Shown: positions 1 to 64,000 of the stretch, piece after piece | How positions within the stretch are numbered: the first letter of the stretch is position 1 | How the letters are laid out: each line of letters starts with the position of its first letter | Origin: a virus | Strand: one strand, 5' to 3' | Length of the DNA: 64,000 nucleotides | Virus record (IMG/VR): IMGVR_UViG_3300010373_000039 | Location: 33,456 to 97,455 of that record | The notes under the pieces: generated by a model | The model's database searches: none | What the model saw: only the letters and a program-made list of their open reading frames with translations | What the model was told of the DNA's origin: nothing | Translations under genes and position numbers: made by a program

Positions 1-513
1 GGCGCGGCGACCTATAACGTCTACCGTGGAACGACCCCGGGTGGGGAATCGGGAACGCCGGTGGCCACCGGGATTACCGGGACCACCTACAACGATACCG
101 GGTTGTCGCCTAGCGCTACCTTCTATTACACGGTTAAATCGGTGAACACGGGTGGAACCTCATCGTCATCGAATGAGGTAATCGCCACGACCGTGGCAAG
201 GAAATTATCCGCGATTCCCGGCGCGGTGAAAACCAACGGAACAAATATTGTCGTTACCTTAGTGGACAATTACGCAACCACGTTCACGACCGGAACGCCC
301 GGATCACCCACGGTCACCGTGACGGGCGCTACCAAGGTAGGTCAACAGGTAACGGCAAACAACCAAATCAAGGTTACAATCAATACGGGTGGGGTGGGAA
401 CCGTCACGTTCGATCCGGGAACCGGATTTACCGCAACCGTTTTGATTAGTAACAGCGGCCTTCGCGATCGAAGGACGGACCCGTTTGGAAACATCAGGCA
501 TCGACCATTTTAG
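1..513 (+). CDS. Fibronectin type III / Ig-like virion-associated protein, 5' truncated by the window
   Basis: Frame is open from base 1: GAATYNVYRGTTPGGESGTPVATGITGTTYNDTGLSPSATFYYTVKSVN..SSNEV is a typical FN3 signature; Thr-rich; at the head of the structural block. Confidence 0.75.
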   Translation, partial: GAATYNVYRGTTPGGESGTPVATGITGTTYNDTGLSPSATFYYTVKSVNTGGTSSSSNEVIATTVARKLSAIPGAVKTNGTNIVVTLVDNYATTFTTGTPGSPTVTVTGATKVGQQVTANNQIKVTINTGGVGTVTFDPGTGFTATVLISNSGLRDRRTDPFGNIRHRPF

Positions 514-522
514 GAGGATACT

Positions 523-1038
523 GTGGATACGATTGTTCAAACAACATTGGTGGACGGTTTCAAACGTTTGTTTGCGACGGATGTAACCACCACGAACAAT
601 TTTCCGGTGGCCACCACGCAGGAACCGAGCGGTGACGGTGTTTTCGTCATCGGTGAGGGGGATGGGATAACCAGCGGGGCCAACGCGGCGTTGCTGGCAT
701 TTTTCGGCACCGGCTCGGCTACGCAAACCGCAACCGCCAAATTGGTGGGGTGGCGCAAAATCGATCAATTGTGGGTGCCGATCCAATTTCTGAGTTTGAA
801 TTTGGCGCTGGGATCGGGCGCGGCGGTCAACCATCCGGACCTGCAAACCGGTGTGGGTGAAATCCTTGTCGATACGATCACGGCGGTGGCGTCGTTGACG
901 ATGGCCGATGAAATCGTCAGCCCGGCGGATGGAACCCTGGCATACGTCAAGTGTGACATCATCGGGTGTCACAAATACCAGGTTGTGTTGTCCAAGGGAA
1001 CGGCGACCTCGATCAATTGTCTGGCCGGCGCGTTCTAA
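523..1038 (+). CDS. Hypothetical virion protein
   Basis: RBS AGGAGG, GTG start, beta-rich composition, in the structural operon. Confidence 0.6.
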   Translation: MDTIVQTTLVDGFKRLFATDVTTTNNFPVATTQEPSGDGVFVIGEGDGITSGANAALLAFFGTGSATQTATAKLVGWRKIDQLWVPIQFLSLNLALGSGAAVNHPDLQTGVGEILVDTITAVASLTMADEIVSPADGTLAYVKCDIIGCHKYQVVLSKGTATSINCLAGAF

Positions 1039-1050
1039 AAACGGTGAAAC

Positions 1051-1746
1051 ATGAAACGCCAACTTAATTCCACCAATCACCCCATCGGATTTTATATGGT
1101 CCTATCCGATGGGGTGACGCCGGCCACCGGCAAAACGGTTACCCTGAACATCATTAAGAATGGGACAGGGGGCGGTGCGTCTGCGACGGGGGCCATAACC
1201 GAATTGGATGCCGTCAACAATCCGGGTTGGTACACGTGGACCGGCAATGGCACCGATCGAAACACGGTTGGTGACATCCTGTGTTCGGCCACGGCCGCCG
1301 GATGCAACACAACCACGTTCACGGTGGGGATCGTCAATTACGATCCGTTCAATCAATCGCAGGTTGCGGTGTTGGTTACCCAATCCCTGTTGACCAATAT
1401 GGCGACCACGACGGGGGGAACCGTCATTCCCATTTCGGTGTTCCAAAACACCCAGGTGAATTTGGCGTTTAAGGTGGTGGACGCATCCAATAACCCGGTC
1501 AATTTGAACGGGGATTCGGTAGAATTCTTGATCCATAACGTCAACGCGTCCACCGCGACCGCCACGATTGCGGCGACCCTTAGCCAATCCGATCCCTCGG
1601 GGCATCCGGGGGTGTATGACACGGTGAACGTTTCGATTGCGCCGGCAAACACGGCGACTAACGGCAATTTCATGTACAAGGTGCGGGATACGACCGCCAA
1701 CGCGATTTACGCCAGCGGATCGTTCAACGTCATTGTCTCGCCCTGA
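1051..1746 (+). CDS. Virion structural protein with two Ig/BppU-like beta domains
   Basis: TPATGKTVTL..ITELDA..PGWY and VVDASNNPVNLNG..F patterns typical of BppU-like/Ig-like phage domains. Confidence 0.55.
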   Translation: MKRQLNSTNHPIGFYMVLSDGVTPATGKTVTLNIIKNGTGGGASATGAITELDAVNNPGWYTWTGNGTDRNTVGDILCSATAAGCNTTTFTVGIVNYDPFNQSQVAVLVTQSLLTNMATTTGGTVIPISVFQNTQVNLAFKVVDASNNPVNLNGDSVEFLIHNVNASTATATIAATLSQSDPSGHPGVYDTVNVSIAPANTATNGNFMYKVRDTTANAIYASGSFNVIVSP

Positions 1747-1833
1747 TCCCTACGTTGGAAGGTGGATTGAGTCGGGTTATAAATCGGCTTCGTTTTTCAA
1801 ACAACCGCCCTTTGGGCAAAAGGAGAGTGTCCG

Positions 1834-2016
1834 ATGAGTTTCGAGGTGCCAACGGTCAAGGTTCGGTTCAAGGAAACCGGCCACGAATGCAAAATCAACA
1901 AGGACGAGTTCGACGAAAACCTTCACGAATTGGTCCGACCCAAGCTTGCCCGCGCCGAGGACAAAAAGGACGACGGCAAGAAGGACGAAAAGAAGGGTGA
2001 CGCGGACAAGAAGTAG
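1834..2016 (+). CDS. Small head-associated protein
   Basis: RBS AAGGAG; VPTVKV..INKDEFDENLHEL resembles small proteins found just upstream of phage head-tail connectors; highly expressed codon style. Confidence 0.6.
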   Translation: MSFEVPTVKVRFKETGHECKINKDEFDENLHELVRPKLARAEDKKDDGKKDEKKGDADKK

Positions 2017-2036
2017 TCCCGCGCTGAAAGGCCCAA

Positions 2037-2570
2037 ATGAGCGTGACGCTGATTGCCACCGATGGTTCGCCGCAGGCCAACGCATATTGCGACGTGGCCT
2101 ACGCCGATAATTTCCTGACCACCCAACGCCCGTTTGTGGGTACGGAGTGGACGGGCCTGACCACGGATCAAAAGGCGACATTGCTCATTTGGGCCACCAC
2201 CTATTTGGATGACATGGTGGATTGGAACGGGTACAAGGCAACCCGTGACCAAGCATTGCGATGGCCGCGTTCGGGTGTCTACGATCCGGATGGGTTTTAC
2301 GTGGACAAATCCACCGTGCCCGATCGCATCCGCCAATGGACGGCGGAAACCGCGTGGGAGTATTCTAAGGTAAACCGCCAGGCCGAACCGACGGCGCTGG
2401 GACAGGGGATTACCGATGTCACGGTGGGACCGATCCGGGTCAAAATTGATCCGAACATGCAACTACCCTATTTCCCGCCCTATCTAGCCACCAAGATTTC
2501 CCGCTACGGAATCCTCATCGCCGAGGGCGGTCCGGGCGCGTTCACCATGGCCCGATTGCTTCGCGTGTAA
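2037..2570 (+). CDS. Head-tail adaptor (DnaT-like phage family)
   Basis: ANAYCDVAYAD, LIWATTYLD, DQALRWPR, VTVGPI motifs; position before the neck genes. Confidence 0.8.
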   Translation: MSVTLIATDGSPQANAYCDVAYADNFLTTQRPFVGTEWTGLTTDQKATLLIWATTYLDDMVDWNGYKATRDQALRWPRSGVYDPDGFYVDKSTVPDRIRQWTAETAWEYSKVNRQAEPTALGQGITDVTVGPIRVKIDPNMQLPYFPPYLATKISRYGILIAEGGPGAFTMARLLRV

Positions 2571-2573
2571 CCT

Positions 2574-2948: not shown

Positions 2949-2951
2949 TGC

Positions 2952-13593: not shown

Positions 13594-15987
13594 ATGGCAA
13601 CCCTTGTTCTAGTCCCCATCGCCGCCGGCATCGCGGCCAACGCCACGGCCGGGTTGGGCGCTACGGCCGCCGCCGTGGCCACCAGCGCTATTATCGGCGT
13701 TGCCGGAACCGTGGGTGCGCTGGTCGATCAAATGTATGTCTACCCGGCCATATTCGGCAACGGGGCATCGCAAATTAAGGGACCGCAACTCAACAACGTG
13801 GCGATTACCGGTGCCAGCGCCGGCACACCGATCAATTTTTGTCTAGGTCGCGAGAATCGGGTTGGCGGCTGCATCATTTGGGTCTCCAACCTTCGTAAAA
13901 CGGCATCCAACGCCGGTTCAGGTGGCAAGGGCGGTACGAACGTCACCACCTATCAATACTTTGTGGACATCGCCATTGCATGGGGCGAGGGAACCATCAA
14001 TGCAATCCGCAAGATTTGGGCCGATGGAAAATTGATCTATGACCAGGCGTTGCAAAACAACAATTCGGGCCAATCGAACCTTTACGATTCATTGATTAAC
14101 TATTTCGGCGACCAAACCACGCCCGATCCAACAATCAGCGCCGCGGAGGGTTCGTCCAACACCCCGTCATTCGTCAATACCTACTACACGGTCATCAACA
14201 ATTTTGCCATTCACGATTGGGGCAACCGTATTCCCAATTTCACGGCGTTGGTCGAGGCCGAGGAACAAACGTTATTGGGTGATGCGATTGTCAAGATTTG
14301 GGAACGGACCGGGCGTCCGGGGTCCGATTTGGACGTGTCGTGGGTATCGGATGTGGAGGTTCTTGGTTACACGTTGGCGGGACCGCAGAATCCGATCAAT
14401 TCAATCGAACCGTTGATGATGGCCTATGATTTGATTACCCAGGAGCAGCATGGCGGGGTGATGCATTTCTACCATCGCAAGGATATGTTGCCGGTTTCGG
14501 TGGCGTCCAACGTCCTGGCGGCGGGTGCGGAAAAGGACACGCCGCTCCGCGCCTTTCAAATTACCGACAACGCCGATTGGGAGGTGGTGGATGAGGTGGA
14601 TGTCACCTACACCGATCCGGCCACGTTTTGGCAACAGGGAATGCAGCGCGAGGTTAAATCCGACATCACCAACCGTTCGGTGTCGTCGATGTCGTTGCCG
14701 TTCACGTTGGATGCCAATAGCGCCAAACAAATCGCCGCGCGAGTATTGTGGTCGGCCCAGGTGGAACGGTGGGCATCACAAATGACGTTGGCCCCGTCGC
14801 AATTGCACATCCTTGAAGGTGATGTGTTGCAATTGACCGCCGATAGTTTGACGTGGCGCAATCGGATCACCACCGTTTCACGGGGACAGAATTTTGTCTA
14901 TGAATTGCATGGATCGGCCGAGCAATCCGGGGTGTTGGATCAATCCGGGTTGGTGGCCGATATCCCGATCATCCCGCCACAACCGGAACCGGCCGGCACG
15001 TCCACCCACACCGGGATTATGATGGAGATCCCAATCCTTCCATGGGAGGGGTATGATCGGGGAATCCATTTCGCGGTGTTCGCCGAGCCCGGGGACGATT
15101 GGCAGGGCGGTTCGGTCTATCTGTCCAAGACGGACAATGGCGATGGTTCCTATTGGTTGATGGCCGATTACCAAATCGAGGCCACGGGCGGGGCGGCGCA
15201 AAATATATTGCCGGCGTCCGGGCCGATCGGTTATTGGGACAACACCACGACGTTGGTTGTCACCATGAACAACGGCCAATTCTTTAGCAATTTGGAATCG
15301 TTGGTGTTGACCGGGTACTTCAATCACGTGTACGTAGGAAAACCGGATGGAACGGGTGAGGTTATTGCGTTTTGCAACGCTACACTGACCGGACCCAATG
15401 AGTATACCCTAAGCAAATTACTTCGCGGCCGCATGGGAACCGAGGACCGCATGGCCGGCCATTTGGTCGGGGATGCCGTGGTGCTGTTGCAACAGGATGG
15501 ATCGATCCATTTCCATCCCTACAACACCGATGGGTTGGGTAAGAATTTATTTTTCAAAACCGTTCCGTTGCATCGGCATTTGTCGGACGTGGCGGCCGCG
15601 AATTATTACCGATCGGCCCGTTCGGTTACCCCGTTCTCGCCGGTTAAAATCAAGGGTGTCCGGGACGGGTCCAACAACCTTACCATTTCGTGGTTCCGTC
15701 GAACCAACGAGTGGGCACCGATTTTCGATTTCCCGGACGCGGCCAATTTGCCGGAAAATTTCCCATCCGACGAGTACGACATTTACATTTACAATGCATC
15801 GGGGTCCACCCTGTTGCGGACGTATCTAAACTATACGGGCGGCGAAAGTATTTTGTATTCCGCCGCCGTTCAAACGTCCGATGGGATCACCCCCGGGGAT
15901 ACGGTCCAGGTTATTGTGTATCAGGTCAACAGCGCATTGTCGCTAAATGGCGGCAAGGGCGTTGCATCGGCCCAAACAACCATTTAA
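13594..15987 (+). CDS. Central tail fibre / megatron-like host specificity protein (RcGTA g15-like)
   Basis: RIWADGK-like KIWADGKLIY, WGNRIPNF, IEPLMMAY, YTLSKLLRGRMGTE, ISWFRR. Confidence 0.9.
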   Translation: MATLVLVPIAAGIAANATAGLGATAAAVATSAIIGVAGTVGALVDQMYVYPAIFGNGASQIKGPQLNNVAITGASAGTPINFCLGRENRVGGCIIWVSNLRKTASNAGSGGKGGTNVTTYQYFVDIAIAWGEGTINAIRKIWADGKLIYDQALQNNNSGQSNLYDSLINYFGDQTTPDPTISAAEGSSNTPSFVNTYYTVINNFAIHDWGNRIPNFTALVEAEEQTLLGDAIVKIWERTGRPGSDLDVSWVSDVEVLGYTLAGPQNPINSIEPLMMAYDLITQEQHGGVMHFYHRKDMLPVSVASNVLAAGAEKDTPLRAFQITDNADWEVVDEVDVTYTDPATFWQQGMQREVKSDITNRSVSSMSLPFTLDANSAKQIAARVLWSAQVERWASQMTLAPSQLHILEGDVLQLTADSLTWRNRITTVSRGQNFVYELHGSAEQSGVLDQSGLVADIPIIPPQPEPAGTSTHTGIMMEIPILPWEGYDRGIHFAVFAEPGDDWQGGSVYLSKTDNGDGSYWLMADYQIEATGGAAQNILPASGPIGYWDNTTTLVVTMNNGQFFSNLESLVLTGYFNHVYVGKPDGTGEVIAFCNATLTGPNEYTLSKLLRGRMGTEDRMAGHLVGDAVVLLQQDGSIHFHPYNTDGLGKNLFFKTVPLHRHLSDVAAANYYRSARSVTPFSPVKIKGVRDGSNNLTISWFRRTNEWAPIFDFPDAANLPENFPSDEYDIYIYNASGSTLLRTYLNYTGGESILYSAAVQTSDGITPGDTVQVIVYQVNSALSLNGGKGVASAQTTI

Positions 15988-20263: not shown

Positions 20264-21352
20264 TCACCCGTATTTCCGTCGTGTCGGCAAAAACTTCTTT
20301 TCGATCTCGAACCAGGCCGTGTCCACCGTCGCATGGACCCGTGCCATTTCGGTATTGTACTCGTCCCGGTCCATTTTGGAAAGTTTCTTGATATACTTGC
20401 CGGCCGTTTTGTCATTCAACCCCAACCGGCCCAGCATCCCCACCTCGTCTAGCCACATCAACGATGCGTCCAAATCGTCGATGCCGAAGGCAAACCGGAT
20501 AGGAAAATCACATTCACGGTAGGCCAACCCCACCTTGTTCTTTTTGCATCGCACACGGGTTTTGACGCCGATCGGCCGTTCCACCTTGTCAATGGTTTTC
20601 TTGATTTGGCCCATGTTGGCCAACCAAATGATTTGCGATGCGTAGTAATCCAGCGCCCGGCCACCGGAACGGGTTTGGGTTTCCCCGAACGTGACGCCGA
20701 TTTTGTCGCGCAATTGGGAGACGATCAATAGCGTGACGTTCAACCGTTCCAACCGTTTGACGTTCCGGCGGAACAATTGGCCCATCAATTTGGGTTTCTT
20801 ACCACCGTAGCTGTTCGCGCCGAATTCCGAATTGTTTTCCGCGTCGTCGCCAAGGGCATCCAACGAATCCAAAATGTACAATCCGGCCTTAGCGGGTTTT
20901 CCCGCCTTGACCAATTTACGTTCACCATCCTTGGTCACCGACGTACACCGAACCCCCTCGACCCGATCGCAAAATTCCTCCAAATCGGCGTGCCATTCCT
21001 CCACCGTTAGGACCGAAACCTCCTCGTTGAAATCGACCCGATCGACCGGCAACCCCACCGTTTCCGCGTAGGGGATATCGAACGCCGCCTCGGCCTCGCG
21101 ATACCGGATTAACCCCTCCTTGGGGTCCGGGTATTTAATGGCGAAGTTGGCGCATGTTTCGATCATTACCAACGATTTGCCGGTGGATTTGTCCCCCACG
21201 ATATTACCGACCCGTCCTTCGGCCCATCCGCCGCCCAGGACGCGATCCAGCAACCGACAGCCGGTCGGAATACACCGGACTTGGCTTGGTGCCGTAAAAT
21301 ACAACCCTGCGCCGCCCCGTTTTAGCCGGGGGCGTTCCCGTTTTTTAGCCAT
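20264..21352 (-). CDS. recA: RecA-like recombinase
   Basis: IPTG..LDRVLGGG, GDKSTGKS, ILDSLDAL, SQLRDKIGVTFG, SGGRALDYYAS, KNKV. Confidence 0.95.
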   Translation of the reverse strand: MAKKRERPRLKRGGAGLYFTAPSQVRCIPTGCRLLDRVLGGGWAEGRVGNIVGDKSTGKSLVMIETCANFAIKYPDPKEGLIRYREAEAAFDIPYAETVGLPVDRVDFNEEVSVLTVEEWHADLEEFCDRVEGVRCTSVTKDGERKLVKAGKPAKAGLYILDSLDALGDDAENNSEFGANSYGGKKPKLMGQLFRRNVKRLERLNVTLLIVSQLRDKIGVTFGETQTRSGGRALDYYASQIIWLANMGQIKKTIDKVERPIGVKTRVRCKKNKVGLAYRECDFPIRFAFGIDDLDASLMWLDEVGMLGRLGLNDKTAGKYIKKLSKMDRDEYNTEMARVHATVDTAWFEIEKKFLPTRRKYG

Positions 21353-21442: not shown

Positions 21443-22588
21443 TTAATCCAGGTCGTCGTCCTCGTCGTCTAGGCTTTCTTTTTCCCGACGCGAGGATGGT
21501 TTGTGGGCAAGCCTTTTGCGTCTTTTGTGACGGCGGGAATCACGGGTTTCTTCCTCGTCTCCGCCTTGAAGCTCTTCGCCATCGTCATCTCCTTCTTCAT
21601 CATCGTCATCATCCCGTTTGGACGCCGCGCGGCGCTTTTTACCACGGGACCGGCGACCATCATCCCCATCCTCGTCCTCGTCGTCAACGTCCGAGTCATC
21701 GTCGAGATCCTCGTCGTCATCGTCCGCTTCGTCATCATCGCGGAAGGAACGGCGGCGGGACTTTCGGTCATCATCCTCGTCGTCATCATCCTCGTCATGC
21801 CGCCGGCGTTCGCGGTCGCGACGGGTGCGAGGACGATCATCATCCTCGTCGTCATCATCCTTGCGCTTTTTGTTGCCGATGCCCCCGACCAACGCCTTGG
21901 TGATGTGCTCGGCGTCGAAAAATTCGATGCAATCGGGGATCGGATGTTTGGTGATGAACCGAAGCCATTTTTGCATCCGATCATCGTTGCGGTGCAGCGG
22001 GGTTTCGCGCGATGCCGGCTTGATGCCCTTGATTTCCGTGAAATCCCCCTTCTTGACACACTTGAAAAGAACATCACGGCCCTTGTAGGGATCATCGTAG
22101 AACACGGTTTCGTTGGTTTCCTCGTCCTCCGCCTCGGCGGCGATGTCACGATCCACGATCCATGACGGGGTCCATAGCATCGGACCATCCTCTTCACGGT
22201 CGCGGTCGATGATCCACATCACCTTGCGGGTTTTGGCCTTGGCATCATCCGCCGCCTTGTTGTTGCGGTGTTTGATCAGCTCGTTGCGCTCCTCGCACAC
22301 CGGGCATTCCTCGTTCTTCATCTTGGCCAAACACGCATATTGGTTGTTGTCCGCGCCGACGCCGTAATGGACCTCGACCGGGTACGCGTAGTGTTCCGCG
22401 CCGTCCCATGTGGGGGGCATGATCCGGATGCGATATTTTTCCCCGGCCTGCGGACTAAACGTCGGGAATTGGGCCTTGATAAACCCGTCCCGCGTCCCGC
22501 CCTTTTGATTGGCCTGGGTCTTAATCGTCGAGGCATCCCGTTGCTTGTACTCAAACCGTTTGCGTTCCCCACGATCACGATTCTTCAT
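21443..22588 (-). CDS. Single-stranded DNA-binding protein (gp32-like) with long charge-block tail
   Basis: RIRIMPP, VHYGVG, C..CPVCE zinc site, GRD motif; between recA and the UvsY-like gene; about 140 aa D/E/R/K tail. Confidence 0.75.
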   Translation of the reverse strand: MKNRDRGERKRFEYKQRDASTIKTQANQKGGTRDGFIKAQFPTFSPQAGEKYRIRIMPPTWDGAEHYAYPVEVHYGVGADNNQYACLAKMKNEECPVCEERNELIKHRNNKAADDAKAKTRKVMWIIDRDREEDGPMLWTPSWIVDRDIAAEAEDEETNETVFYDDPYKGRDVLFKCVKKGDFTEIKGIKPASRETPLHRNDDRMQKWLRFITKHPIPDCIEFFDAEHITKALVGGIGNKKRKDDDDEDDDRPRTRRDRERRRHDEDDDDEDDDRKSRRRSFRDDDEADDDDEDLDDDSDVDDEDEDGDDGRRSRGKKRRAASKRDDDDDEEGDDDGEELQGGDEEETRDSRRHKRRKRLAHKPSSRREKESLDDEDDDLD

Positions 22589-25002: not shown

Positions 25003-25674
25003 TTACCTTGGTTTAAGAACAGCGCCAAAATGGTCGGTCGCCTCGCCCGAATAACGATCAACCGTGGGTTGGCCGGCTTTGTCGAAAAACCACGCCGGTT
25101 CCCACTGTTGGTAAATAATACCCCAGGCATCGGTCCAATTTTTCGGTCGGTTTTCCAGGTCATCAAGCGCCCGACGACCGTAGACGCACAACGTTTTGGT
25201 CATTTTCCTTGAATCTTCCAAGAATTTGGCTAGAACATCGGGGTCCAAATGTTGCAAAACGTAGATGCACACAATGGCGTCGAACGAGCGGTAGTTTACC
25301 GATACCTTGGTGTATGAGGGTTCCAACACCCAACGAAATCGGTTTCGGGGATGGTTTAGTTGTTTCCAAAACAGTTTTTGGCCCCGCGCCAGCATTACCT
25401 CACTGTCGTGCGCCATGACCGCCCAATTGGGCGACATGTCCAACAACCCTACCGTGTTGCGCAACATCCCGGCCCCGAAATCCAAAATCTGCAATTGTCG
25501 GGACGTATCCAAACCGAACGATCGAAGTATATCGGTATCCGGTTTGAATTGGTCCAATTGGGTGATGTCCGAACAAATGCTTTTGGCCACCTCAAAATCG
25601 GTTCGGTGGTACGCGGCATTGCGCCGCCACTCGTCGGATAATCCATAGGGACCATCGTGGTTGCGGGCCATCAT
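25003..25674 (-). CDS. Class I SAM-dependent methyltransferase
   Basis: ILDFGAG..R, FDAIVCIYVLQHL. Confidence 0.8.
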   Translation of the reverse strand: MMARNHDGPYGLSDEWRRNAAYHRTDFEVAKSICSDITQLDQFKPDTDILRSFGLDTSRQLQILDFGAGMLRNTVGLLDMSPNWAVMAHDSEVMLARGQKLFWKQLNHPRNRFRWVLEPSYTKVSVNYRSFDAIVCIYVLQHLDPDVLAKFLEDSRKMTKTLCVYGRRALDDLENRPKNWTDAWGIIYQQWEPAWFFDKAGQPTVDRYSGEATDHFGAVLKPR

Positions 25675-26747
25675 TCCACCTCATAGTTTCCGAAAAACCC
25701 CTTTTGTATCCGTGATTGCCGACGGTGCTGGATTTTCATGTACTCCGGATTCAATTCGATGGAGATACACCGCCGCCCTAGTTTGGCGGCGACCATGGCG
25801 GTGGTTCCGGACCCCCCAAATGGATCAAGGACAATGTCCCCGGGTCGTGACGCCATTTTGATACACCGTTCCGGCAGCGACGGTGGGAACACCGCAAAAT
25901 GGGCATCCGAGCAGCTTATAGTTGGAATGTCCCAAACGGTTCGAAGGTTTCGTCCGTTGGGATTGGATGGGGTTTCGTGGTTATGGGCCACCGCGTATTG
26001 ACCATCCTTGCCCTTGGTAATGCGGGTGTATTTATCCCGTTCCAATGTCGTGGCGGCGACCGGCACACGCACCGCGTCCATGTCGAAATAGTATTTGGAT
26101 TTATATTTGGAAAACATGAACACGTGTTCGTGGTCCCGATTGGGACGATTGGGCGTGTTTTCCGGCATGGCGTTACGCTTGTACCAAATGCACTCGGAGC
26201 GAAGGGTCCAATTGTCCTCGCCGAACATCAAAATGGCGGTCATCCATGGAATGCCGACCAATTCCTTTTCATGGTAGCTATCCCCCAAATTCAAGAACAA
26301 TAGTCCATCGGGTTTCAGCACCCGGTATACTTCGGTCATTACCCTCCGAATATTGTGCATGTAGATGTACGCCGTAGGTTCACACCCCAATTCCCCCAGC
26401 CACGCCGAACACGTGTCCTTGAATTTGCAAAACCGTCCCCGGGACACCCCGCGTTGCCGTTGGGCCAACAGATTGGTGCGTCCCTTGCGTGCGCTGGTTT
26501 TTCCGGGCGTTTGTGCCGGGCCGTAGCGGATGATTTCCTCGCCCCATTCGTGCCTGCATGTGGGCGAACCGCCCCATATTTGCGGTTCGGTCCCATAGGA
26601 TCGCAATCCCCAATAGGGCGGCGATGTGACGGCCACTTGCACACATGATTCCGGCAACCCGCGCAATACGTCGATGCAGTGTCCGGTGATGTTGCAAATG
26701 CCACGCTCATCGAAACGGACCAATCGCCGCCGGTTAGTTGTAGGCAT
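25671..26747 (-). CDS. DNA N4-C/N6-A methyltransferase (beta class)
   Basis: VTSPPYWGLR, RVLKPDG..NLGD, HFAVFP, VLDPFGGSGTT. Confidence 0.93.
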   Translation of the reverse strand: MPTTNRRRLVRFDERGICNITGHCIDVLRGLPESCVQVAVTSPPYWGLRSYGTEPQIWGGSPTCRHEWGEEIIRYGPAQTPGKTSARKGRTNLLAQRQRGVSRGRFCKFKDTCSAWLGELGCEPTAYIYMHNIRRVMTEVYRVLKPDGLLFLNLGDSYHEKELVGIPWMTAILMFGEDNWTLRSECIWYKRNAMPENTPNRPNRDHEHVFMFSKYKSKYYFDMDAVRVPVAATTLERDKYTRITKGKDGQYAVAHNHETPSNPNGRNLRTVWDIPTISCSDAHFAVFPPSLPERCIKMASRPGDIVLDPFGGSGTTAMVAAKLGRRCISIELNPEYMKIQHRRQSRIQKGFFGNYEVE

Positions 26748-32930: not shown

Positions 32931-33803
32931 TTACTTCAACTTGCCCAGGTCGTCAAGCTGCTTGATCGTGGCGCTGGTGTCGTGCCAAACACCCTTGATA
33001 TGCTGTTCGCTGAGCTTGGGGTGTTTCTTGCCGATGGTGGCAATGGTTTTTTCGATCGAAATTTTGGGGTTCTTGCAAACCAGTGCCCGGATCGCCTTGC
33101 GGCCGGCCACCAATTCCTCGCCGGTCGGTCCCGCCGCGTCCTTGGATTTGCCGCCCTTACCCTTGGACGACGAGGTTTTGTCGCCCTTTCCTCCTTTCTT
33201 GGATTTGGGTTTTTCGTCCTCCTCGTCGTCATCGTCCGCGTCGTCATCATCGGACTCCTCGTCGTCGTCCGAATCATCGTCGGATTCGTCATCATCGGAC
33301 TCCTCGTCCGAATCTTCGTCGTCATCCGCGCTGTCGTCGTCGGAATCGTCATCGTCCGATTCCTCGTCGTCATCGTCCGAATCGGAATCTTCATCATCGT
33401 CCGCCTCTTCGTCGTCGCCGTCGTCATCAGACTCTTCGTCATCATCGGATTCTTCGTCGTCCTCCCCCTCGTCGTCCGAATCGTCATCGTCGGACGTGTC
33501 GGAATCATCCGAATCATCGTCCTCGTCATCCTCCTCCGGCTCGTCCGCGCCGCCGTCGAAATCGTTCAACGGCTTCTTCTTTTTGGAATCTTCGTTGTCG
33601 TTGGCGATTTCGACGTTATCGCCCACCCAATCCTGCGCCTCCTGGGACAGCTTGGCGAACGCCTTTTCCTTCATGGTGTTCGCCGACTCCATCAACCGGT
33701 CCAAGTAGTCCTGCCGGTCCTCCTTCTTGCCCTGCGGCTTTTCCTTGGTCGCCGCCAACAATTCCGCTTCGATCTTGCTCGTCTTCGCCGTCTTTGTTCC
33801 CAT
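32931..33803 (-). CDS. Highly acidic protein with >100-residue Asp/Glu/Ser tract and basic helical C-terminal domain
   Basis: Translation; RBS AAGGAG; highly expressed codon style; has its own promoter motif and terminator. Confidence 0.85.
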   Translation of the reverse strand: MGTKTAKTSKIEAELLAATKEKPQGKKEDRQDYLDRLMESANTMKEKAFAKLSQEAQDWVGDNVEIANDNEDSKKKKPLNDFDGGADEPEEDDEDDDSDDSDTSDDDDSDDEGEDDEESDDDEESDDDGDDEEADDDEDSDSDDDDEESDDDDSDDDSADDDEDSDEESDDDESDDDSDDDEESDDDDADDDDEEDEKPKSKKGGKGDKTSSSKGKGGKSKDAAGPTGEELVAGRKAIRALVCKNPKISIEKTIATIGKKHPKLSEQHIKGVWHDTSATIKQLDDLGKLK

Positions 33804-41782: not shown

Positions 41783-42065
41783 GTTTCCACTCCAAATCCT
41801 TAATCGGCTCCTTCGGCTCCTCCGATTGGCGCTGCCGTCCGGATTGATGGATTCCCAGGATTTTGCCATGTTCCCGTTCCACGTATTGAGTACCGACGAT
41901 GGATACATGGCACCGGTATTCCGGCATTTGGTTGTTGATCGTCGATTCGATATTGAACAACATGGTTTTCAAAAACGTTTCGTCGGCGGATTGAAGGTGA
42001 ATGATCCCATCCGCTAACGTTTTTCCCTGTTGTTTAATCGTAATTTGTGCATGGGTCGGGGCCAT
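41775..42065 (-). CDS. Hypothetical protein
   Basis: TAATG coupling to the PLP enzyme gene. Confidence 0.5.
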   Translation of the reverse strand: MAPTHAQITIKQQGKTLADGIIHLQSADETFLKTMLFNIESTINNQMPEYRCHVSIVGTQYVEREHGKILGIHQSGRQRQSEEPKEPIKDLEWKHD

Positions 42066-42832
42066 TAGCGTTCCTCGGTTTGGCGGATGCCGACAACCCA
42101 CAGGCAATCGCCGGGTTTTAGAAATGGAATGCATTTAGCCTCGTAGTGCGGGTCCAAATGCACCCCGTCATAGTCGCATGTTTCGGCCGGTTTGTGGTAA
42201 TCGGTTCCGGCGTTCTCCAACGTAACCCAATGTTCCCATCCCCATGGGGCATAGGTGCGCAACCGTTTGCGGGGATCGGCCCCCACCACGACACCTAAAA
42301 CCGGGTGGTTATATCCCATCCGTCGCATCCCGTGCAGGATTCCGACTAACGACATGCCCGAACCCACCGGGACCACTAAACGTTTTATGCCCGGTCCGCC
42401 CTCAACAAGAAGGTTATACACCTGCATTTGGGTTTGCCGAACCGCCGCGGCGCATTCCATGCCAAAGGGGATGTGGACCCATCCGGGATGTTGTGCGGCA
42501 TCCGATTCGGCCCGCGACTTGATGACCGTGTTGTACCCAACCCTGTGTTGGATGATTTCGGCCCCCGCGTTTCGCGCCGCCACCACCTCCGGCGACATCT
42601 TCCCGGATGGAATATGGACACGGCACGGGATGCCCAATTTTTTGGCGATGTGCGCCACGATATTGACCTGCGGAGATGCCCGCGATCCGGCGGTAATCAA
42701 GCCCATCGCCCTGGTTTGCGTGGCCAAATGCCAACACGTCCGCGCCTTACCCCCCGATACGCCGGCCACGCGGAAGTGGTCATCCCGCTTCATCCAAATG
42801 TCACCATGTTGTTCAATCGGGGTGAATTTCAT
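42065..42832 (-). CDS. PLP-dependent enzyme (fold type II, ACC deaminase/D-Cys desulfhydrase-like)
   Basis: TPIE..WMKRDD..SGGKAR (PLP Lys), SPQ..VA, VVPVGSGMSL.G, LDPHYEAK. Confidence 0.85.
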   Translation of the reverse strand: MKFTPIEQHGDIWMKRDDHFRVAGVSGGKARTCWHLATQTRAMGLITAGSRASPQVNIVAHIAKKLGIPCRVHIPSGKMSPEVVAARNAGAEIIQHRVGYNTVIKSRAESDAAQHPGWVHIPFGMECAAAVRQTQMQVYNLLVEGGPGIKRLVVPVGSGMSLVGILHGMRRMGYNHPVLGVVVGADPRKRLRTYAPWGWEHWVTLENAGTDYHKPAETCDYDGVHLDPHYEAKCIPFLKPGDCLWVVGIRQTEER

Positions 42833-43317
42833 ACATTACCCCAGTACTCACTGAAATCCTGAAGCAATTGACCGGCCGATGTAAACCTCCTCCAATATCG
42901 CGGACCACCAACCTCGGATTCTCTGGTGTCAAAATAATCGGTCCAACGATCACTATCGGTTATCGGGTCCGGACGGGCGCAAAATACCCTTTCGATTTGT
43001 TGTCGCAAAAGGTGTTTGACGGCCAACCCCACCGCATCCTCCATGTCCTCATCGGTTGTGTTGGTCACAACCTTGCCATGAACCGTTTCCTTACAATCGC
43101 TGATGACAATTTCTATGTGTCGCATGTTTTTCTCAAATCCTTGAACATACATCGCCAACATCATGGCATCGGTAGAAACGGCAAGGTTGCGGCATTGCAT
43201 TAACCCGATTTGCCGTTCCCTTTCGTTCAATTCGGCGATTGCGCTAAGGAATTCTTCATCCACCGGCGTCGGGGCCGGGATTAGGTAGCCGGTTAGTGGG
43301 ATATTTATTTCCTTCAT
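42829..43317 (-). CDS. Hypothetical protein
   Basis: ATGA-coupled. Confidence 0.55.
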   Translation of the reverse strand: MKEINIPLTGYLIPAPTPVDEEFLSAIAELNERERQIGLMQCRNLAVSTDAMMLAMYVQGFEKNMRHIEIVISDCKETVHGKVVTNTTDEDMEDAVGLAVKHLLRQQIERVFCARPDPITDSDRWTDYFDTRESEVGGPRYWRRFTSAGQLLQDFSEYWGNV

Positions 43318-43586
43318 TTGTGCCTTATCGCCGCGTCACACGCTTCTTTTTCCGTCGCGAACCATTTGCCGATCAACGAACCCAATGATGGTTTGAACCG
43401 TTTGCGGTTTATGCACACCAATTGCAGTCTGTCGGTGACCATGTCCTTTGTAACGTTCACATCACCCCATCCAATGGATATTGTTGTAAAAACGTCCGTC
43501 GCGTAAATCTCGGCAACGACAAAACCACCCTCTATGCGCCATTTGGCCCAATAGTATCCCGGACGCATGGGTGTGTTGTCGCTCAT
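43314..43586 (-). CDS. Hypothetical protein
   Basis: PGYYWAK motif; coupled. Confidence 0.55.
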   Translation of the reverse strand: MSDNTPMRPGYYWAKWRIEGGFVVAEIYATDVFTTISIGWGDVNVTKDMVTDRLQLVCINRKRFKPSLGSLIGKWFATEKEACDAAIRHK

Positions 43587-43756
43587 CGTTTGTTCCCGAT
43601 CCGGGCGTTCCAAATTTGTTCTACCTTCGAAGATTGTTTGTCGGTGAAGGTTGACCGCAACACGATGCTATCCAGGAAATTGACCTCCCATTCGCTAAGC
43701 CCCTCTTCAAGATCTAGCAACTCCCGGATCATGTTTTGGATGTCTTTGTCATTCAT
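43583..43756 (-). CDS. Small phage protein (LSEWE..FLDSI..TDKQ..IW), below ORF track cutoff
   Basis: 57 aa, ATGA-coupled on both sides, recurrent phage motif. Confidence 0.65.
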   Translation of the reverse strand: MNDKDIQNMIRELLDLEEGLSEWEVNFLDSIVLRSTFTDKQSSKVEQIWNARIGNKR

Positions 43757-44040
43757 TTTCGCACCAATCCTCGACGAAATGCCTCCGCATTCAAATCATT
43801 CAAAATCGGGAAAAACTCCGATGCATCACCCCGCTCCATCGCGTCAATTTGTTGATCCAATACAAACGCACCATCACTTTCCGAATCGATCATCAACGAT
43901 AGTGCATAGGCGGATTCGATTGATTTTTCGTGGTGTTGACGAACACAATTGATTGCATTCTGAAGATGCTCGTCCGTCATATCACAAATCCGGATGGTTT
44001 TTCCGGATTTCATCTTCCATTTTTTGGTCACCTTTCTCAT
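43753..44040 (-). CDS. Hypothetical phage protein
   Basis: W..KSG..I.I.DMTDEHL.NAI motif. Confidence 0.65.
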   Translation of the reverse strand: MRKVTKKWKMKSGKTIRICDMTDEHLQNAINCVRQHHEKSIESAYALSLMIDSESDGAFVLDQQIDAMERGDASEFFPILNDLNAEAFRRGLVRK

Positions 44041-45020
44041 TTCCGCACCAATCGTTTGCGGTTACACACGGCGGCGGCGATGCGCGGATCACCCTTCACA
44101 AACACCAACACCGTTTGGTGGGTACGGCCCACCTTGCGGGACCGTTGGAATTGCTTGGTGACCCGGATCGGCAACGAACCAATGGCCGTCAACAACATGA
44201 TTTCGTTGTAGTAGCGTGCGCCGGCGTCCTCGAATGCCCGGATCGTGTCCGGAACCAATCCGTAATAATATCCTTCCTTTTCCCGTGTCGAACGCGCTTC
44301 CCCAACCACCCACACCGCAAACCGGTTATTTTTCAACCGCCGAACCGATTGTTTGATGATGTCGAAATAGGCACGTTTGAAGGTTTCATAGTCCATGTTG
44401 GACAAATCGCGCGGATGGTCCGAATAGACCTCCAAATCGGCGTAGGGTGGGCAACTAAAAACCAAATCGAATGTCTTTTCGTCGTTGAATTCCTTTAGCA
44501 CCCCACGACTATCCCCGCAAATCCATTCGGCCGACCGATCGTCCAGGATTTTTTCCTGTTGAACCAAATTGGCACGGACCTGTTCCCCGCGTAATTCAAT
44601 CCCCAAGTATTTTCGTCCCGTATGTCCGGCAACGATGCCGCGAACCGATCCGCCGGCGAATGGGTCCAACACCATTCCCCCATCGGGCGAAAACCATGTG
44701 TAAACACATTCGCACAACACCGGATCGAAAATCGATGTGCCCGATCCGGTATCCAGGATTTTCTTGGACACCGGGTCCAAATCCTTATATTCGCGGGTGC
44801 CGGCAACGAAGGTAAACCGCTTGGTTTCCCCATTGGACGCCCGGCCCAATTCCGATTCGATCCCCAGCGCCAACCATGCGCGCTTGCGGTCCTGCCAATA
44901 CCCCGCCTTGGCGTCCAACACACTAAACGGGGGTACGACAAAACGTCGCTGTAATAGACTCGCGTTTACCGGGGCGTATGGGATGTTGAAGAACCCCTCT
45001 GCCCGTAGTTTCCTACCCAC
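44037..45020 (-). CDS. DNA amino-methyltransferase (alpha order; family often fused to ParB)
   Basis: PPFSVLD..GYWQ.RK..W, TSIFDPVLCE, LDPFAGGSVRG, FSCPPY.DLEVYS, HQ.VLVF.KG. Confidence 0.88.
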   Translation of the reverse strand: MGRKLRAEGFFNIPYAPVNASLLQRRFVVPPFSVLDAKAGYWQDRKRAWLALGIESELGRASNGETKRFTFVAGTREYKDLDPVSKKILDTGSGTSIFDPVLCECVYTWFSPDGGMVLDPFAGGSVRGIVAGHTGRKYLGIELRGEQVRANLVQQEKILDDRSAEWICGDSRGVLKEFNDEKTFDLVFSCPPYADLEVYSDHPRDLSNMDYETFKRAYFDIIKQSVRRLKNNRFAVWVVGEARSTREKEGYYYGLVPDTIRAFEDAGARYYNEIMLLTAIGSLPIRVTKQFQRSRKVGRTHQTVLVFVKGDPRIAAAVCNRKRLVRK

Positions 45021-60626: not shown

Positions 60627-60770
60627 AGGAAACACCTTCGCATGTGGAAAACCGATTCATGTGGTGGAAATACAAAACGATGGGAAAAACTTCCAAAAAA
60701 TGAACCATTAAATCCGGAAAACAAAACAGGGTGTCAATAACACCTCTCTGCGTGAAGCTTTTAATATAAG

Positions 60771-61034: not shown

Positions 61035-61108
61035 GGCAAATCTCCTATCGTTTGGCGTGAAGATTTAGTATGACGCGTTCGGCGTGATTGTCAACACAAT
61101 TCTGCGAA

Positions 61109-61483
61109 TTAAATGTACAATTTACCATCGTCGCCGACGTACAAATTGCATTCGCCGAATTGCTCCGAAGCTTCGGTCAATTTCTTGCCGATGTCCGCAT
61201 GTTCCGGATCGTTGACGCCGTACCGGTCCCAAAACCCGGACCCGTGGCCATTGCGCGTCAACCAAAAATCGTGACCGTGATCGCGCGGCGTGAATCCGAA
61301 TTGTTTTAGCAATTCGGCGTTGTCGCGCTGGAATTTGGTGCAATCGTCGATGATCCGGACCAACGCATCGGCGTGAAGATCATCGGGCGCGTAGTGATCC
61401 TCCAACGGCGCATCATTGCTATCGTTCGATATCCACAACGCGCATTCGATGTAGCCGGCCGTGAATTGATCCAATTTGGGCAT
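61109..61483 (-). CDS. Conserved phage protein (GHDFWLTRNGHG.GFWDR family)
   Basis: YIECALW, GHDFWLTRNGHGSGFWDR, YVGDDG. Confidence 0.8.
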   Translation of the reverse strand: MPKLDQFTAGYIECALWISNDSNDAPLEDHYAPDDLHADALVRIIDDCTKFQRDNAELLKQFGFTPRDHGHDFWLTRNGHGSGFWDRYGVNDPEHADIGKKLTEASEQFGECNLYVGDDGKLYI

Positions 61484-61581
61484 AAATCACCTATCGGCGT
61501 GAAGCTTTGGCGTGATGGTCCGCGCGTCGCGGACCATCGAAGCGCCGGCGCAACCGTTAGGCTACGCGCGGCGTGATGGTT

Positions 61582-61983
61582 TTACGATTCAATACACGTT
61601 TGGTTGATATCATCCATGGCCATATGTTCGGCCGGTGTGATGATCCGTTGCCCATGCGCATCGGTTTTGAGCGCGGGATTAGACGGGCCGACGATGCCCG
61701 ATTTGGTGTTATCGATGTGCAACGTTGCGCCGCATAGGTTGCGTGATCGGCGTAGCCATTCACATAGCACGTGGAACGATGCGAATAGGTGGCTACACGT
61801 GTAGCCACCATCAAAATAGACAATCAATTGCCCGTTGCCGTCCGGATCGTCCGGCGATGTGTTGATCCGGTGAATCGAAACCAAATGGACGTTGTGGTTT
61901 GATGCGAATTCGACCAAACCGCGAAGGTTTTTGGATTGCCGCACGACCGCGCCGGTGGCGTCGATGATTTTGACACGTTCCAT
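61582..61983 (-). CDS. Early hypothetical protein
   Basis: SKNLRG, FASF.VL..W...R motifs; CGATAGG leader. Confidence 0.65.
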   Translation of the reverse strand: MERVKIIDATGAVVRQSKNLRGLVEFASNHNVHLVSIHRINTSPDDPDGNGQLIVYFDGGYTCSHLFASFHVLCEWLRRSRNLCGATLHIDNTKSGIVGPSNPALKTDAHGQRIITPAEHMAMDDINQTCIES

Positions 61984-62008
61984 GTTTCCATCCTATCGGA
62001 TCGATGCC

Positions 62009-62467
62009 CTATTGCATCGATGGTATTTTGCCGGTGATGATGTGATGTTGAAGCTTGCGGATGATCGCCCGCACATCGGCCCGGGCACGATCATTGTTGA
62101 TGTGTTGCAATAGATCGGTCAGCGCGTTGAGCGCTTCATCGCAACCGATTTCATGCAACGCGTTGATCGATGCGCCGGCCGTGTGGCTAAACACGTTGAT
62201 GGCGGTGGAAATCCACGCCATATCATCGGGCGACAAATTGAGCGCCGCCACATCCACCAACCGCCGCGCCGGTTTGCCGTCGATGTGGTCGATGATCGAT
62301 TGGATGATTGGTGCATATTCAACCGATTGTGTGGGGATGAATTCTACCAGCGCGCGGCGGATGAATTCCGGTTTGATTGCGCCTAGATCGGGATTGCCCA
62401 ACCGGGTTCCCAGCGCATGCGCGATCGCATCGAAAACCATCGGCCGTTGTGTGTCGCTAAATCGCAT
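62009..62467 (-). CDS. Early hypothetical protein
   Basis: Duplicated CGATAGG leader. Confidence 0.6.
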   Translation of the reverse strand: MRFSDTQRPMVFDAIAHALGTRLGNPDLGAIKPEFIRRALVEFIPTQSVEYAPIIQSIIDHIDGKPARRLVDVAALNLSPDDMAWISTAINVFSHTAGASINALHEIGCDEALNALTDLLQHINNDRARADVRAIIRKLQHHIITGKIPSMQ

Positions 62468-62504
62468 TTGGGTTCCTATCGTTTTTGGGTTCCTATCGTT
62501 TTTG
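62468..62504. repeat. Tandem duplication TTGGGTTCCTATCGTTT x2
   Basis: Direct 17-bp tandem repeat containing the leader motif. Confidence 0.8.
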
Positions 62505-62888
62505 GTTTAGCACCATTACTAAACCATAGTCAAATGATGACCATGGTATCGGCGAATGTCAACACCAAAATGCATAAAATCTTCGAATTTATTTTTGGCG
62601 TTGATGATCGGCGTTGATGGTTGGCGTTGATAGCGCTAGCGCTTGGAAGCGCAGCGCTAGCGCCGCCGGCGCGCCGCCCGACACGCCGATTGAACCACCG
62701 CCCGCCCGGGCAATGGACAATGGCCCGATGCACAATCATGCATGGACCGGCACACCCGAAAAATCTTTTTCATGGCATGGCGATTGCTGGAAGCTTCGGC
62801 GATGAAAAAATTCCAAAATAATTAGAAGATTTTTGTTGCATCGGTCGATGGATTTATGGTAATCAACACACATCCGCAATGGTGCGGA

Positions 62889-63172
62889 CCAAACGATAGG
62901 ATGGAACCCATGATCGCAACGATTCAAAAAACGTCGGCCGATGGCCACGCAACCAACGGTTACACGGTAACGATTTCGGGCGATGGTGCCGAGACGATCC
63001 GCGATCTATTCGGCGACACCACATTGCCATTGCCCATTACCCACGCCGCGCCGATGCACCGGGCAATTGAAATGGTCCGGCGCATGCCGCTATTGATCGG
63101 CGCGGAAATCCGCACGGCCGAATAGGTCGAAGCATTTAGGGGGTAACGCCAAACGATAGGATGGAACCCATG
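62889..63172 (+). repeat. Exact 24-bp direct repeat CCAAACGATAGGATGGAACCCATG at 62889 and 63149
   Basis: Identical copies, each ending in a start codon. Confidence 0.85.
62910..63125 (+). CDS. Early hypothetical protein
   Basis: Repeat leader; LFG.TTLPLP motif. Confidence 0.6.
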   Translation: MIATIQKTSADGHATNGYTVTISGDGAETIRDLFGDTTLPLPITHAAPMHRAIEMVRRMPLLIGAEIRTAE

Positions 63173-63400
63173 CTAACGATTCACCACAACGGAAACACCT
63201 ACAACTACCATCGCGGCAAAATCACGCCGATCAACGAACGCACGGCCGCGCAAAACGAACGGTACGCGCTGTACGCGGGCATCGATTGCGCCCGCTACGT
63301 CGCCCCGGAATTGGACCCGGCGAACCCGGCTAATTGGCGCATGGCCGACGGCGATGCACCAATCGGCGCACGGTTCCAACCGGCCATGAAAAATAATTAG
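63170..63400 (+). CDS. Early hypothetical protein
   Basis: Repeat leader. Confidence 0.55.
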   Translation: MLTIHHNGNTYNYHRGKITPINERTAAQNERYALYAGIDCARYVAPELDPANPANWRMADGDAPIGARFQPAMKNN

Positions 63401-63445
63401 AAGGTTTTTGTTGACACGCCGATAGAAGATTGTCAAACTACATCC

Positions 63446-63628
63446 ATGGCAAACGCAATGAACCAATTAGCCAACTACATCCGCAACCACGGCAATCAAG
63501 CGCAAATCGTCAACGGAATGTTGATGGTTTTTGATAGTCAATGGGATACCGTGGCCAAGCGCGAATGCGGCAAATGGATCGTGGTAGCGCCGACATGGCG
63601 CGCGGTCCGCATTTGGCTAGGCTATTGA
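63446..63628 (+). CDS. Small phage protein ending VR.WLGY
   Basis: Recurrent phage C-terminal motif; preceded by a TTGACA promoter. Confidence 0.6.
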   Translation: MANAMNQLANYIRNHGNQAQIVNGMLMVFDSQWDTVAKRECGKWIVVAPTWRAVRIWLGY

Positions 63629-64000
63629 TCCAACACGATAGGTAACGATCCACCTATCGGCCGGCCGGGCGCAGCGCATCGAACGTAGGTGCGCTGGCCC
63701 GGTGCGGTTTACCGCCCATGCCACAATGGCCCGCGGCGCAACGGAACCGGCCCAAGGATCGACGATCGACGCCGCAACCATGCTAGGGTAGCCAAACGAC
63801 CGTCCAACGCCGCAAATCGAACGGAAATCACGCGATGCGAACGGGTGCAGAACGATGGAGGGGAGTCCCTATGGCCAGACCCACCCCGGCAAGAATCGGG
63901 CTCCCCACACATTCACACTTCTGTCTCAGGTTACCTCCTGAAGATTTATAAATCATCACACCCCCCCCCCCCCCCCCCCCCACAAAACCCCCCCCCCCCC

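Follow-up and report, generated by a model that had tools for sequence, protein, structure and literature searches.

Genome-wide depletion of the AG/CT dinucleotide step in an uncultivated tailed phage and its possible causes

The phage and its genes

The AG/CT dinucleotide step is strongly depleted in the genome of an uncultivated tailed phage that is represented by the 97,455-bp IMG/VR virus record IMGVR_UViG_3300010373_000039. The window, which is the whole stretch of 64,000 nucleotides presented for analysis, comprises bases 33,456-97,455 of this record and is numbered 1-64000, while coordinates with the prefix L081 are genome coordinates and lie upstream of the window. The record is linear and has a CheckV completeness of 83%. 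The pressure against AG/CT acts at the DNA level, is strand-symmetric, responds to the junctions between codons, alters the encoded proteins, and is absent from all of the relatives examined.

The structural genes of the phage encode a P22-type coat protein, a DUF4055 portal, a tape-measure protein, and a tail-tip protein of the gene transfer agent (GTA) type. The TerL gene is split by a LAGLIDADG intein. One set of replication genes encodes a UDG-exonuclease-PolA fusion, a sliding clamp, a clamp loader, and DnaB, and a second set encodes a primase-like protein, a RecA-like protein, a gp32-like single-stranded DNA-binding protein (SSB), and a SNF2 helicase. No tRNA genes were found in the phage genome.

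Extent of the AG/CT deficit

The window features 3151 AG and CT steps where about 7957 are expected, which corresponds to a ratio of observed to expected steps, rho(AG/CT), of 0.396 and to about -54 standard deviations (SD) on a Poisson scale. Over the whole record, a check proposed in an earlier note that was made from the letters of the window, rho(AG/CT) is 0.409 and thus far from 1, and the upstream 33 kb is depleted like the window. The GA/TC step, which has the same base composition, has a rho of 0.97-0.98. The earlier note had counted 7, 9, and 8 AG and CT steps by hand at 14101-14340, 20521-20760, and 62041-62280, respectively, and these counts are exact, with about 29.7 steps expected in each case. 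Its GC content of about 57%, judged by eye, is 54.0% when computed, and the 3-4-fold loss that it described holds for the sampled stretches, whereas the loss is about 2.5-fold genome-wide. The note had also placed the deficit in the core genes; however, every 2-kb bin is affected (rho 0.30-0.59), and so is the intergenic DNA, which has a rho of 0.46 over 12.5 kb, or of 0.43 over the 11.2 kb that are left when the 20 nt upstream of start codons are removed. The hierarchy of NAGN contexts is identical in intergenic and coding DNA. Additionally, the intein in TerL is as depleted (0.37) as the exteins that flank it (0.38-0.39).

L081:9844-12687, upstream of the window: TerL gene and its intein with a LAGLIDADG homing endonuclease

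For the same proteins, with codons drawn by base composition, the genes would be expected to contain 9,503 AG and CT steps; 4,185 are present and the minimum possible is 1,072. In other words, 63% of the avoidable steps in genes are gone and 3,113 avoidable steps are left. When the unavoidable cases are removed, AG on the sense strand is at 0.32 and CT is at 0.42 of expectation, which is close to strand symmetry, so both strands are depleted. About 4,950 AG/CT steps remain in the genome and the elimination of sites is therefore far from complete. The most enriched step is AA/TT (1.40), and the excess of dinucleotides is spread over AA, AT, CG, and GG with no single product in excess.

The least depleted part of the genome lies at 24-34 kb, which reaches to about position 500 of the window and has a rho of 0.46-0.59 compared with 0.30-0.53 elsewhere. 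This part contains the capsid gene, an HNH gene, and a cassette of secreted-protein genes, which are either highly expressed or more recently acquired.

Sequence words that carry the deficit

Fifteen of the 16 NAGN contexts are depleted (0.13-0.62), and only AAGG is found at its expected frequency (1.0). The lowest values belong to CAGA and CAGT (0.13-0.14), and depletion in the CAG (0.13-0.43) and TAG (0.42-0.46) contexts equals or exceeds that in the AAG and GAG contexts. Among 5-mers with one AG/CT step, 95% fall below expectation with a median observed/expected ratio (O/E) of 0.43, and 5-mers with two steps have a median O/E of 0.18, which is the square of 0.43. The 20 most depleted of the 464 AG/CT-containing 5-mers contribute only 8% of the total deficit. 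Because the deficit is spread evenly over the 464 5-mers and the loss is multiplicative, the avoided unit is the AG/CT step itself, with context modulating the effect. The earlier note had suggested that AG-containing type III, IIG, and BREX sites carry the deficit, which is not supported by this even spread. The counts of the sites that it named, CAGCAG (9 versus 8.6 predicted), GGTAAG (22 versus 18), and TAGGAG (7 versus 5.3), are those that a dinucleotide model predicts.

Some words are depleted far past the dinucleotide effect, including AGTTC/GAACT (7 copies versus 94), CAGTC/GACTG (9 versus 81), TCAGA/TCTGA (12 versus 69), and CCCAGA/TCTGGG (0 versus 30). All four are candidate half-sites of type IIS, III, or I systems, and AGTTC, CAGTC, and CCCAGA may represent genuine longer sites. 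At the other extreme, the octamer CCGGATCG/CGATCCGG occurs in 50 copies in the genome (19 on one strand and 31 on the other) where about 12 are expected from dinucleotides, and CGCCGGCG is likewise very frequent.

Codon choice around the AG/CT step

The step is depleted in all three of the positions that it can take relative to the codon. The sense-strand values of AG and CT are 0.30 and 0.58 at codon positions 1-2, 0.57 and 0.20 at positions 2-3, and 0.28 and 0.38 at positions 3-1. The junctions between codons were examined by permuting synonymous codons genome-wide, which keeps the proteins and the codon usage intact. This permutation predicts 1445 ± 23 AG steps and 1712 ± 27 CT steps at junctions, compared with 456 (z = -43) and 671 (z = -38) in the genome. 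Thus the deficit persists after control for amino-acid content, as the earlier note had asked, and for the codon usage of the phage. Its presence in three codon contexts, at junctions, on both strands, and between genes places the pressure on DNA and not on translation.

The codons for Lys, Gln, and Glu show how this pressure operates. When the next codon starts with G, an AG step is unavoidable as either NAA-G or NAG-G, and NAG is used in 79-85% of cases. When the next codon starts with A, C, or T, the step is avoidable by NAA and NAG is used in only 12-25% of cases (Fisher p 1e-83 to 1e-102). The general preference for G over A at the third position is about 77:23 (for example, 80:20 for CCG:CCA and 75:25 for ACG:ACA), so NAG before G stands at the baseline preference. 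This split between avoidable and unavoidable cases is exactly what would follow if every AG step bore an equal cost. Additionally, a third-position A before G drops 4-10-fold in four-fold families, down to 1-8%, and a third-position C before T drops 2-4-fold. A codon choice that varies with the neighbouring codon is predicted by a dinucleotide pressure and not by tRNA supply.

The NCT codons are depleted 5-10-fold, with a relative synonymous codon usage (RSCU) of 0.10-0.19, and the AGR and CTN codons are low. Leu is mostly TTG (53%) and Gln is mostly CAA (73%), both as read by the earlier note. The replacement routes are NCT to NCC or NCG, NAG to NAA, A3|G to B3|G, C3|T to T3|T, AGR to CGN, and CTN to TTG, in which both bases of the step are swapped via transitions as well as transversions.

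Cost to proteins and to highly expressed genes

The proteins themselves are altered by the avoidance of AG/CT. Dipeptides of the form [KQE][GAVDE], which force an AG step, number 1,072 where 1,375.5 are expected (0.78), while the same residues in reversed order are at 1.05 and the control dipeptides [RNDH][GAVDE] are at 1.00. In the PolA of the phage, AG-forcing dipeptides occupy 3.95% of positions compared with 5.85 ± 0.78% in 74 homologues.

Genes for abundant proteins are less affected. The capsid gene has an O/E of 0.64 and the putative scaffold gene has an O/E of 0.68. In the capsid, scaffold, putative major tail, and SSB genes, the use of NAG before a base other than G is 0.35-0.47 compared with 0.21 genome-wide, and CTN makes up 76-83% of the Leu codons in the capsid and SSB genes compared with 40% genome-wide. 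These values suggest a translational preference for AAG, CAG, and CTG/CTC against which the purge of AG/CT runs, and because genes for abundant proteins retain NAG and CTN codons, avoidance appears to trade off against translation. The accessory genes are also less depleted (HNH gene 0.64, secreted-protein cassette 0.51-0.68). Two genes in the window illustrate weaker depletion:

Window 21443..22588, minus strand: gp32-like SSB gene, NAG before non-G 0.35 versus 0.21 genome-wide, CTN in 10 of 12 Leu codons
Window 32931..33803, minus strand: gene for a 290-aa protein, among the least depleted of the window (O/E 0.63, z = +3.7 versus the genome rate), NAG before non-G 0.55

Avoidance of palindromic restriction sites

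The genome carries a second signal, which was measured over the whole genome against expectations from a dinucleotide model. Twelve palindromic hexamers are found in 0-2 copies where 21-60 are expected. Those that are entirely absent are GGATCC (0/46 observed/expected), GACGTC (0/32), GTCGAC (0/32), ATTAAT (0/30), and GTGCAC (0/24), and the others are GGGCCC (2/60), GGCGCC (2/52), CGTACG (1/27), GTTAAC (1/22), GGTACC (1/21), TTTAAA (2/33), and GCATGC (2/30). CCGCGG (11/77), TTCGAA (12/49), and TGATCA (7/27) are strongly reduced as well, while GATC, CCGG, GCCGGC, CGGCCG, and CAATTG are over-represented. An O/E below 0.2 is found for 32% of the testable palindromes compared with 0.1% of the non-palindromic hexamers. 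This loss is textbook avoidance of type II restriction, which means that DNA-cutting enzymes have exerted selection on the phage genome. It also implies that blanket DNA modification probably has no protective role here, and that the phage DNA is probably not protected in this way.

Related phages and bacterial genomes

The polymerase of the phage marks a large phage clade. Its architecture is found in 306 IMG/VR stretches, many of which are contigs of 60-110 kb, with GC contents of 29-69%.

Window 26734-29397, minus strand: UDG-exo-PolA polymerase, in which a family-4 UDG-like domain, a 3'-5' exonuclease, and PolA are fused

The nearest cultured relatives match in single proteins that are only 26-31% identical. 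The cultured matches of PolA are Vibrio SSP002-like phages, and those of the tail-tip protein are alphaproteobacterial phages and "Tetraselmis virus" phages. No close relative was found when 20 kb were compared with 50,697 phage records by megablast or when IMG/VR was scanned with PolA as a single protein. Among 5.8 billion proteins, no PolA homologue exceeds 46% identity, and the best portal relative is 45% identical. A homologue of the glycosyltransferase described below exists at 72% identity.

None of the relatives resembles the phage in its AG/CT content. Eighty of the 306 PolA-related loci (33-41% identity) have a rho(AG/CT) of 0.66-1.21 with a median of about 0.98, four portal-related loci have 0.90-1.00, and three related loci that are binned in metagenome-assembled genomes (MAGs) of Opitutaceae, Elusimicrobia, and Eubacteriales have 0.93-1.22. 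The 87 loci together span 0.66-1.22, and none is like the 0.41 of the phage. For comparison with bacteria, 60 genomes were drawn evenly from a single candidate host phylum, the Verrucomicrobiota; their rho(AG/CT) is 0.63-1.05 with a median of 0.85. Planctomycetota, Cyanobacteria, and Alphaproteobacteria were further groups thought of as potential hosts. The mild deficit in these genomes is driven by TAGN contexts (0.16-0.25), with CAGN near 1, and their context profiles are uncorrelated with that of the phage (Spearman -0.05 to 0.25). The Karlin delta* distance to the nearest of the bacterial samples is 0.10, which is not close. An enrichment of the cyanobacterial HIP1 octamer was not seen in the phage (4 copies). 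Among the compared phages and Verrucomicrobiota, the phage is an outlier in degree as well as in kind.

Modification genes of the phage

Several genes of the phage encode enzymes that may modify DNA:

Window 25671..26747, minus strand: DNA methyltransferase 1 (PF01555), candidate modifier, Pfam E=3.9e-49, phrog_67, TSPPY motif IV at residue 42
Window 25003..25674, minus strand: small S-adenosylmethionine (SAM)-dependent methyltransferase-fold protein with Methyltransf_25/12/11 matches, which overlaps the stop of methyltransferase 1
Window 44037..45020, minus strand: ParB-like methyltransferase, candidate modifier, phrog_12517 E=2e-101, phrog_498, PF01555
Window 42065..42832, minus strand: pyridoxal phosphate (PLP)-dependent enzyme of the PALP fold, PF00291 E=6e-15

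The relatives of methyltransferase 1 in the PDB are beta-class N4C/N6A methyltransferases, and its TSPPY motif IV is of the type usual for N4-cytosine enzymes. The small SAM-dependent protein has no homologue in the 87 related loci. The ParB-like methyltransferase features a ParB-like N-terminus, a DPFAGGS motif I, and a SCPPY motif IV, and it shares one operon with the PLP enzyme (window 42065-45020, minus strand). The structural neighbour of the PLP enzyme in the ESM Atlas is a cluster of phage proteins of about 720 aa with 66 members, of which 94% carry PALP, 92% N6_N4_Mtase, and 39% ParB_N domains. Because PALP, methyltransferase, and ParB domains are fused in other phages, this operon is a candidate for an uncharacterised DNA-hypermodification module. 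However, relatives with homologues of the PLP enzyme (52-54% identity) and the ParB-like methyltransferase (42-48%) have a rho(AG/CT) of 0.76-1.05, so the module by itself does not produce the purge.

A six-frame search of the genome yielded no TET/JBP or ADDT domain, and no DpdA or 7-deazaguanine genes were found with PHROGs and Pfam on about 70 proteins. Two further genes lie upstream of the window, at L081:8492-9343 and L081:6414-8222, respectively:

Just upstream of the terminase genes: GT2-type glycosyltransferase with a weak match to TET-associated glycosyltransferases
Adjoining the glycosyltransferase: 602-aa MazG-like pyrophosphohydrolase/WYL protein

Explanations for the deficit

The favoured explanation, which is given a probability of about 0.4, invokes natural selection against a double-stranded DNA target of very small size (2-3 bp), exerted by some DNA-acting factor. 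The ApG/CpT step would be disfavoured across all double-stranded phage DNA, with an independent penalty of about 0.43-fold per step that would peak in CAG[A/T] contexts and be weakest in AAGG. The target would be read in a dose-dependent manner by a factor encountered during infection, such as a frequent-cutting or nicking endonuclease, a PAM-like (protospacer adjacent motif) recognition step, or a DNA sensor, and each removed step would bring a small benefit. From these data we infer selection rather than mutation as the cause, and a reader of the defence type. Selection is favoured because the codon baseline returns at unavoidable steps, because the loss is multiplicative, and because restriction avoidance is independently evident in the same genome. 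The cost to proteins, the lineage-specificity of the deficit (87 relatives at 0.66-1.22), and the existence of enzymes that read two or three letters lend it further support. Additionally, both bases are swapped by every synonymous route, so a single hypermutable base is not enough as a cause.

An adaptation to codon usage or tRNA supply, or a consequence of amino-acid composition, would explain that TTG and CAA are favoured and that NCT and AGR codons are rare, but this explanation is already refuted. The junctions are depleted at fixed codon usage (z = -43 and z = -38), codon choice switches with the next base, intergenic DNA is equally depleted (0.43-0.46), and the phage has no tRNA genes. 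A version of the earlier note's proposal, in which the deficit is the sum of several avoided AG-containing type III, IIG, I, or BREX sites, can draw on AGTTC/GAACT, CAGTC/GACTG, and CCCAGA, which are depleted past the dinucleotide effect, and on the clear avoidance of restriction sites in the genome. It is nevertheless largely refuted by the spread over 5-mers, where the top 20 of 464 account for 8% of the deficit and 95% of one-step 5-mers are depleted, and by the match of CAGCAG, GGTAAG, and TAGGAG to dinucleotide-model counts, which leaves it very improbable.

There are two explanations based on mutation. In one of these, the host belongs to a lineage in which AG/CT is depleted by a context-dependent bias of mutation or repair and the phage has drifted along with it. 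The dinucleotide signatures of phages generally follow those of their hosts, the depletion is uniform along 97 kb with the TerL intein (0.37) like its exteins (0.38-0.39), and other biases point the same way in the Verrucomicrobiota as in the phage (AA, AT, and CG high, TA low). On the other side, none of the 60 bacterial genomes, sampled from one phylum, falls below 0.63, and the deficit of the Verrucomicrobiota is TAG-driven and uncorrelated with the phage profile. The genes for abundant proteins favour AAG, CAG, and CTG/CTC, which suggests that host translation is not tuned to AG/CT-free codons, and the accessory genes (HNH gene 0.64, secreted-protein cassette 0.51-0.68) are less depleted, as if their donors were less depleted. 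A signature shared with the host is thus unlikely, though it deserves to be kept in view. In the other, the phage's own DNA chemistry causes hypermutation at the AG/CT step, through which the motif is lost over time, with N4-cytosine methylation, the ParB-like methyltransferase and PLP module, or the replication and repair proteins as candidates. The phage encodes two PF01555 methyltransferases, one of which has a TSPPY motif, and a PLP enzyme that in related phage proteins is joined to methyltransferase and ParB domains; the AA/TT step is the most enriched (1.40), as CT>TT and AG>AA changes would give, and there are phage enzymes that act after replication with a specificity for dinucleotides (PMC13229309). 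However, both base pairs of the step are replaced, the 5-10-fold reduction of NCT codons is impossible via C>T changes at CT, and NAG before G is back exactly at the baseline G:A preference. The relatives that encode homologues of the PLP enzyme and the ParB-like methyltransferase stand at 0.76-1.05, and the UDG-exo-PolA polymerase is common to more than 300 phages, of which the 80 loci examined are without depletion. Hypermutation by the phage's own enzymes is accordingly held to be improbable.

Selection against a short DNA target has to be set against several observations. About 4,950 AG/CT steps persist, so the benefit per site would be tiny and dose-dependent and all-or-none restriction is excluded. 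No reader of AG/CT was found. The host-wide signature discussed above, unlikely as it is, is compatible with the data, and a lesion or nick-repair process that is centred on the step and mutates both base pairs would imitate the evidence for selection. The closest PolA is only 46% identical, which leaves no close relative to polarise the substitutions or to show conservation. Finally, a profile in which depletion is greatest in CAG and smallest in AAG/AGG is at odds with R^AG as well as with the type I-E PAMs.

Other candidates were considered and dropped. An RNA-level target does not agree with the depletion of both AG and CU on the sense strand and also between genes. Avoidance of internal Shine-Dalgarno sequences does not agree with AGG and AGGA as the least depleted words, nor does ultraviolet (UV) dipyrimidine damage agree with the enrichment of TT. 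Primase CTG sites were dropped for lack of a plausible selective logic.

If selection against a short DNA target is the cause, a bolder proposal is that an undescribed bacterial or mobile-element factor reads AG/CT, best as CAGW, with harm to invading DNA that scales with the number of steps. Such a factor would be a DNA-level bacterial counterpart of ZAP and its CpG sensing, from which some phages would escape by rewriting their genomes. This proposal is tentative and rather doubtful. A literature search yielded no report of AG/CT depletion in phages, and we know of no published account of a force against AG/CT. The removal of 63% of the avoidable copies at a cost to proteins and codons implies a strong and persistent force. 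If this force is selection, the deficit would point to factors of the host or of competitors that recognise very short DNA words dose-dependently, a class that motif-based searches for restriction avoidance miss. If it is a mutation bias, either host-wide or driven by modification, the phage offers a natural example of context-dependent mutagenesis that lies outside CpG and is unusually clean. Either way, its composition can serve as a sharp fingerprint by which the host and related phages may be traced.

Comparison with known systems

The depletion of AG/CT resembles restriction-site avoidance in that selection strips the targets of nucleases by synonymous change, and the classical form of this process is present here in the 12 hexamers. 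Unlike in restriction-site avoidance, the deficit does not fall on one or a few sites of 4-8 bp. The avoided unit is a non-palindromic dinucleotide that is thinned 2.5-fold and not eliminated, and the loss is multiplicative per step and extends to the amino-acid sequence.

Depletion of a CC PAM (type I-F) is reported in Pseudomonas phages (PMC12174588). PAM depletion is similar to the case of the phage in that a motif of 2-3 nt is read on either strand, fewer copies help proportionally, and the loss is strand-symmetric. A short motif depleted on both strands is indeed what the phage features (avoidable AG 0.32, CT 0.42). In the phage, the known AG-containing PAMs, AAG/AGG of type I-E systems, are the contexts with the weakest depletion, so they fit poorly. 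To our knowledge, no PAM depletion of comparable size has been described.

CpG depletion, which arises from methylation and deamination in vertebrates and from ZAP in RNA viruses, is also a genome-wide loss of one dinucleotide and is attributed either to context-dependent mutation or to a dinucleotide-counting sensor. In contrast to CpG, AG/CT is non-palindromic. Methylation and deamination act on one hypermutable base and leave one product in excess, whereas in the phage both positions are replaced and no single product dinucleotide is in excess. We know of no DNA-reading bacterial counterpart of ZAP.

Viral nucleases and methyltransferases that read essentially AG do exist in chloroviruses of algal hosts, where Nt.CviQII nicks R^AG and M.CviQII methylates AG (PMC3017599). 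Unlike the site of Nt.CviQII, the avoided step in the phage does not require a purine 5' of AG, as YAG is depleted like RAG and CAG is depleted the most. The methyltransferases of the phage are generic PF01555 enzymes and are candidate modifiers. The thymine-modifying T-dioxygenases of phages prefer NTC or NTG (PMC13229309). None of Nt.CviQII, the T-dioxygenases, and the CC PAM fits the context profile of the phage.

A Karlin-type genome signature, including the amelioration of a phage toward its host, shares with the present case a uniform genome-wide dinucleotide bias that is independent of coding. The phage differs in that its rho(AG/CT) of 0.41 lies outside the values of the 87 phage loci (at least 0.66) and of the 60 bacterial genomes (at least 0.63), and in that its context profile is distinct from those of the compared genomes.

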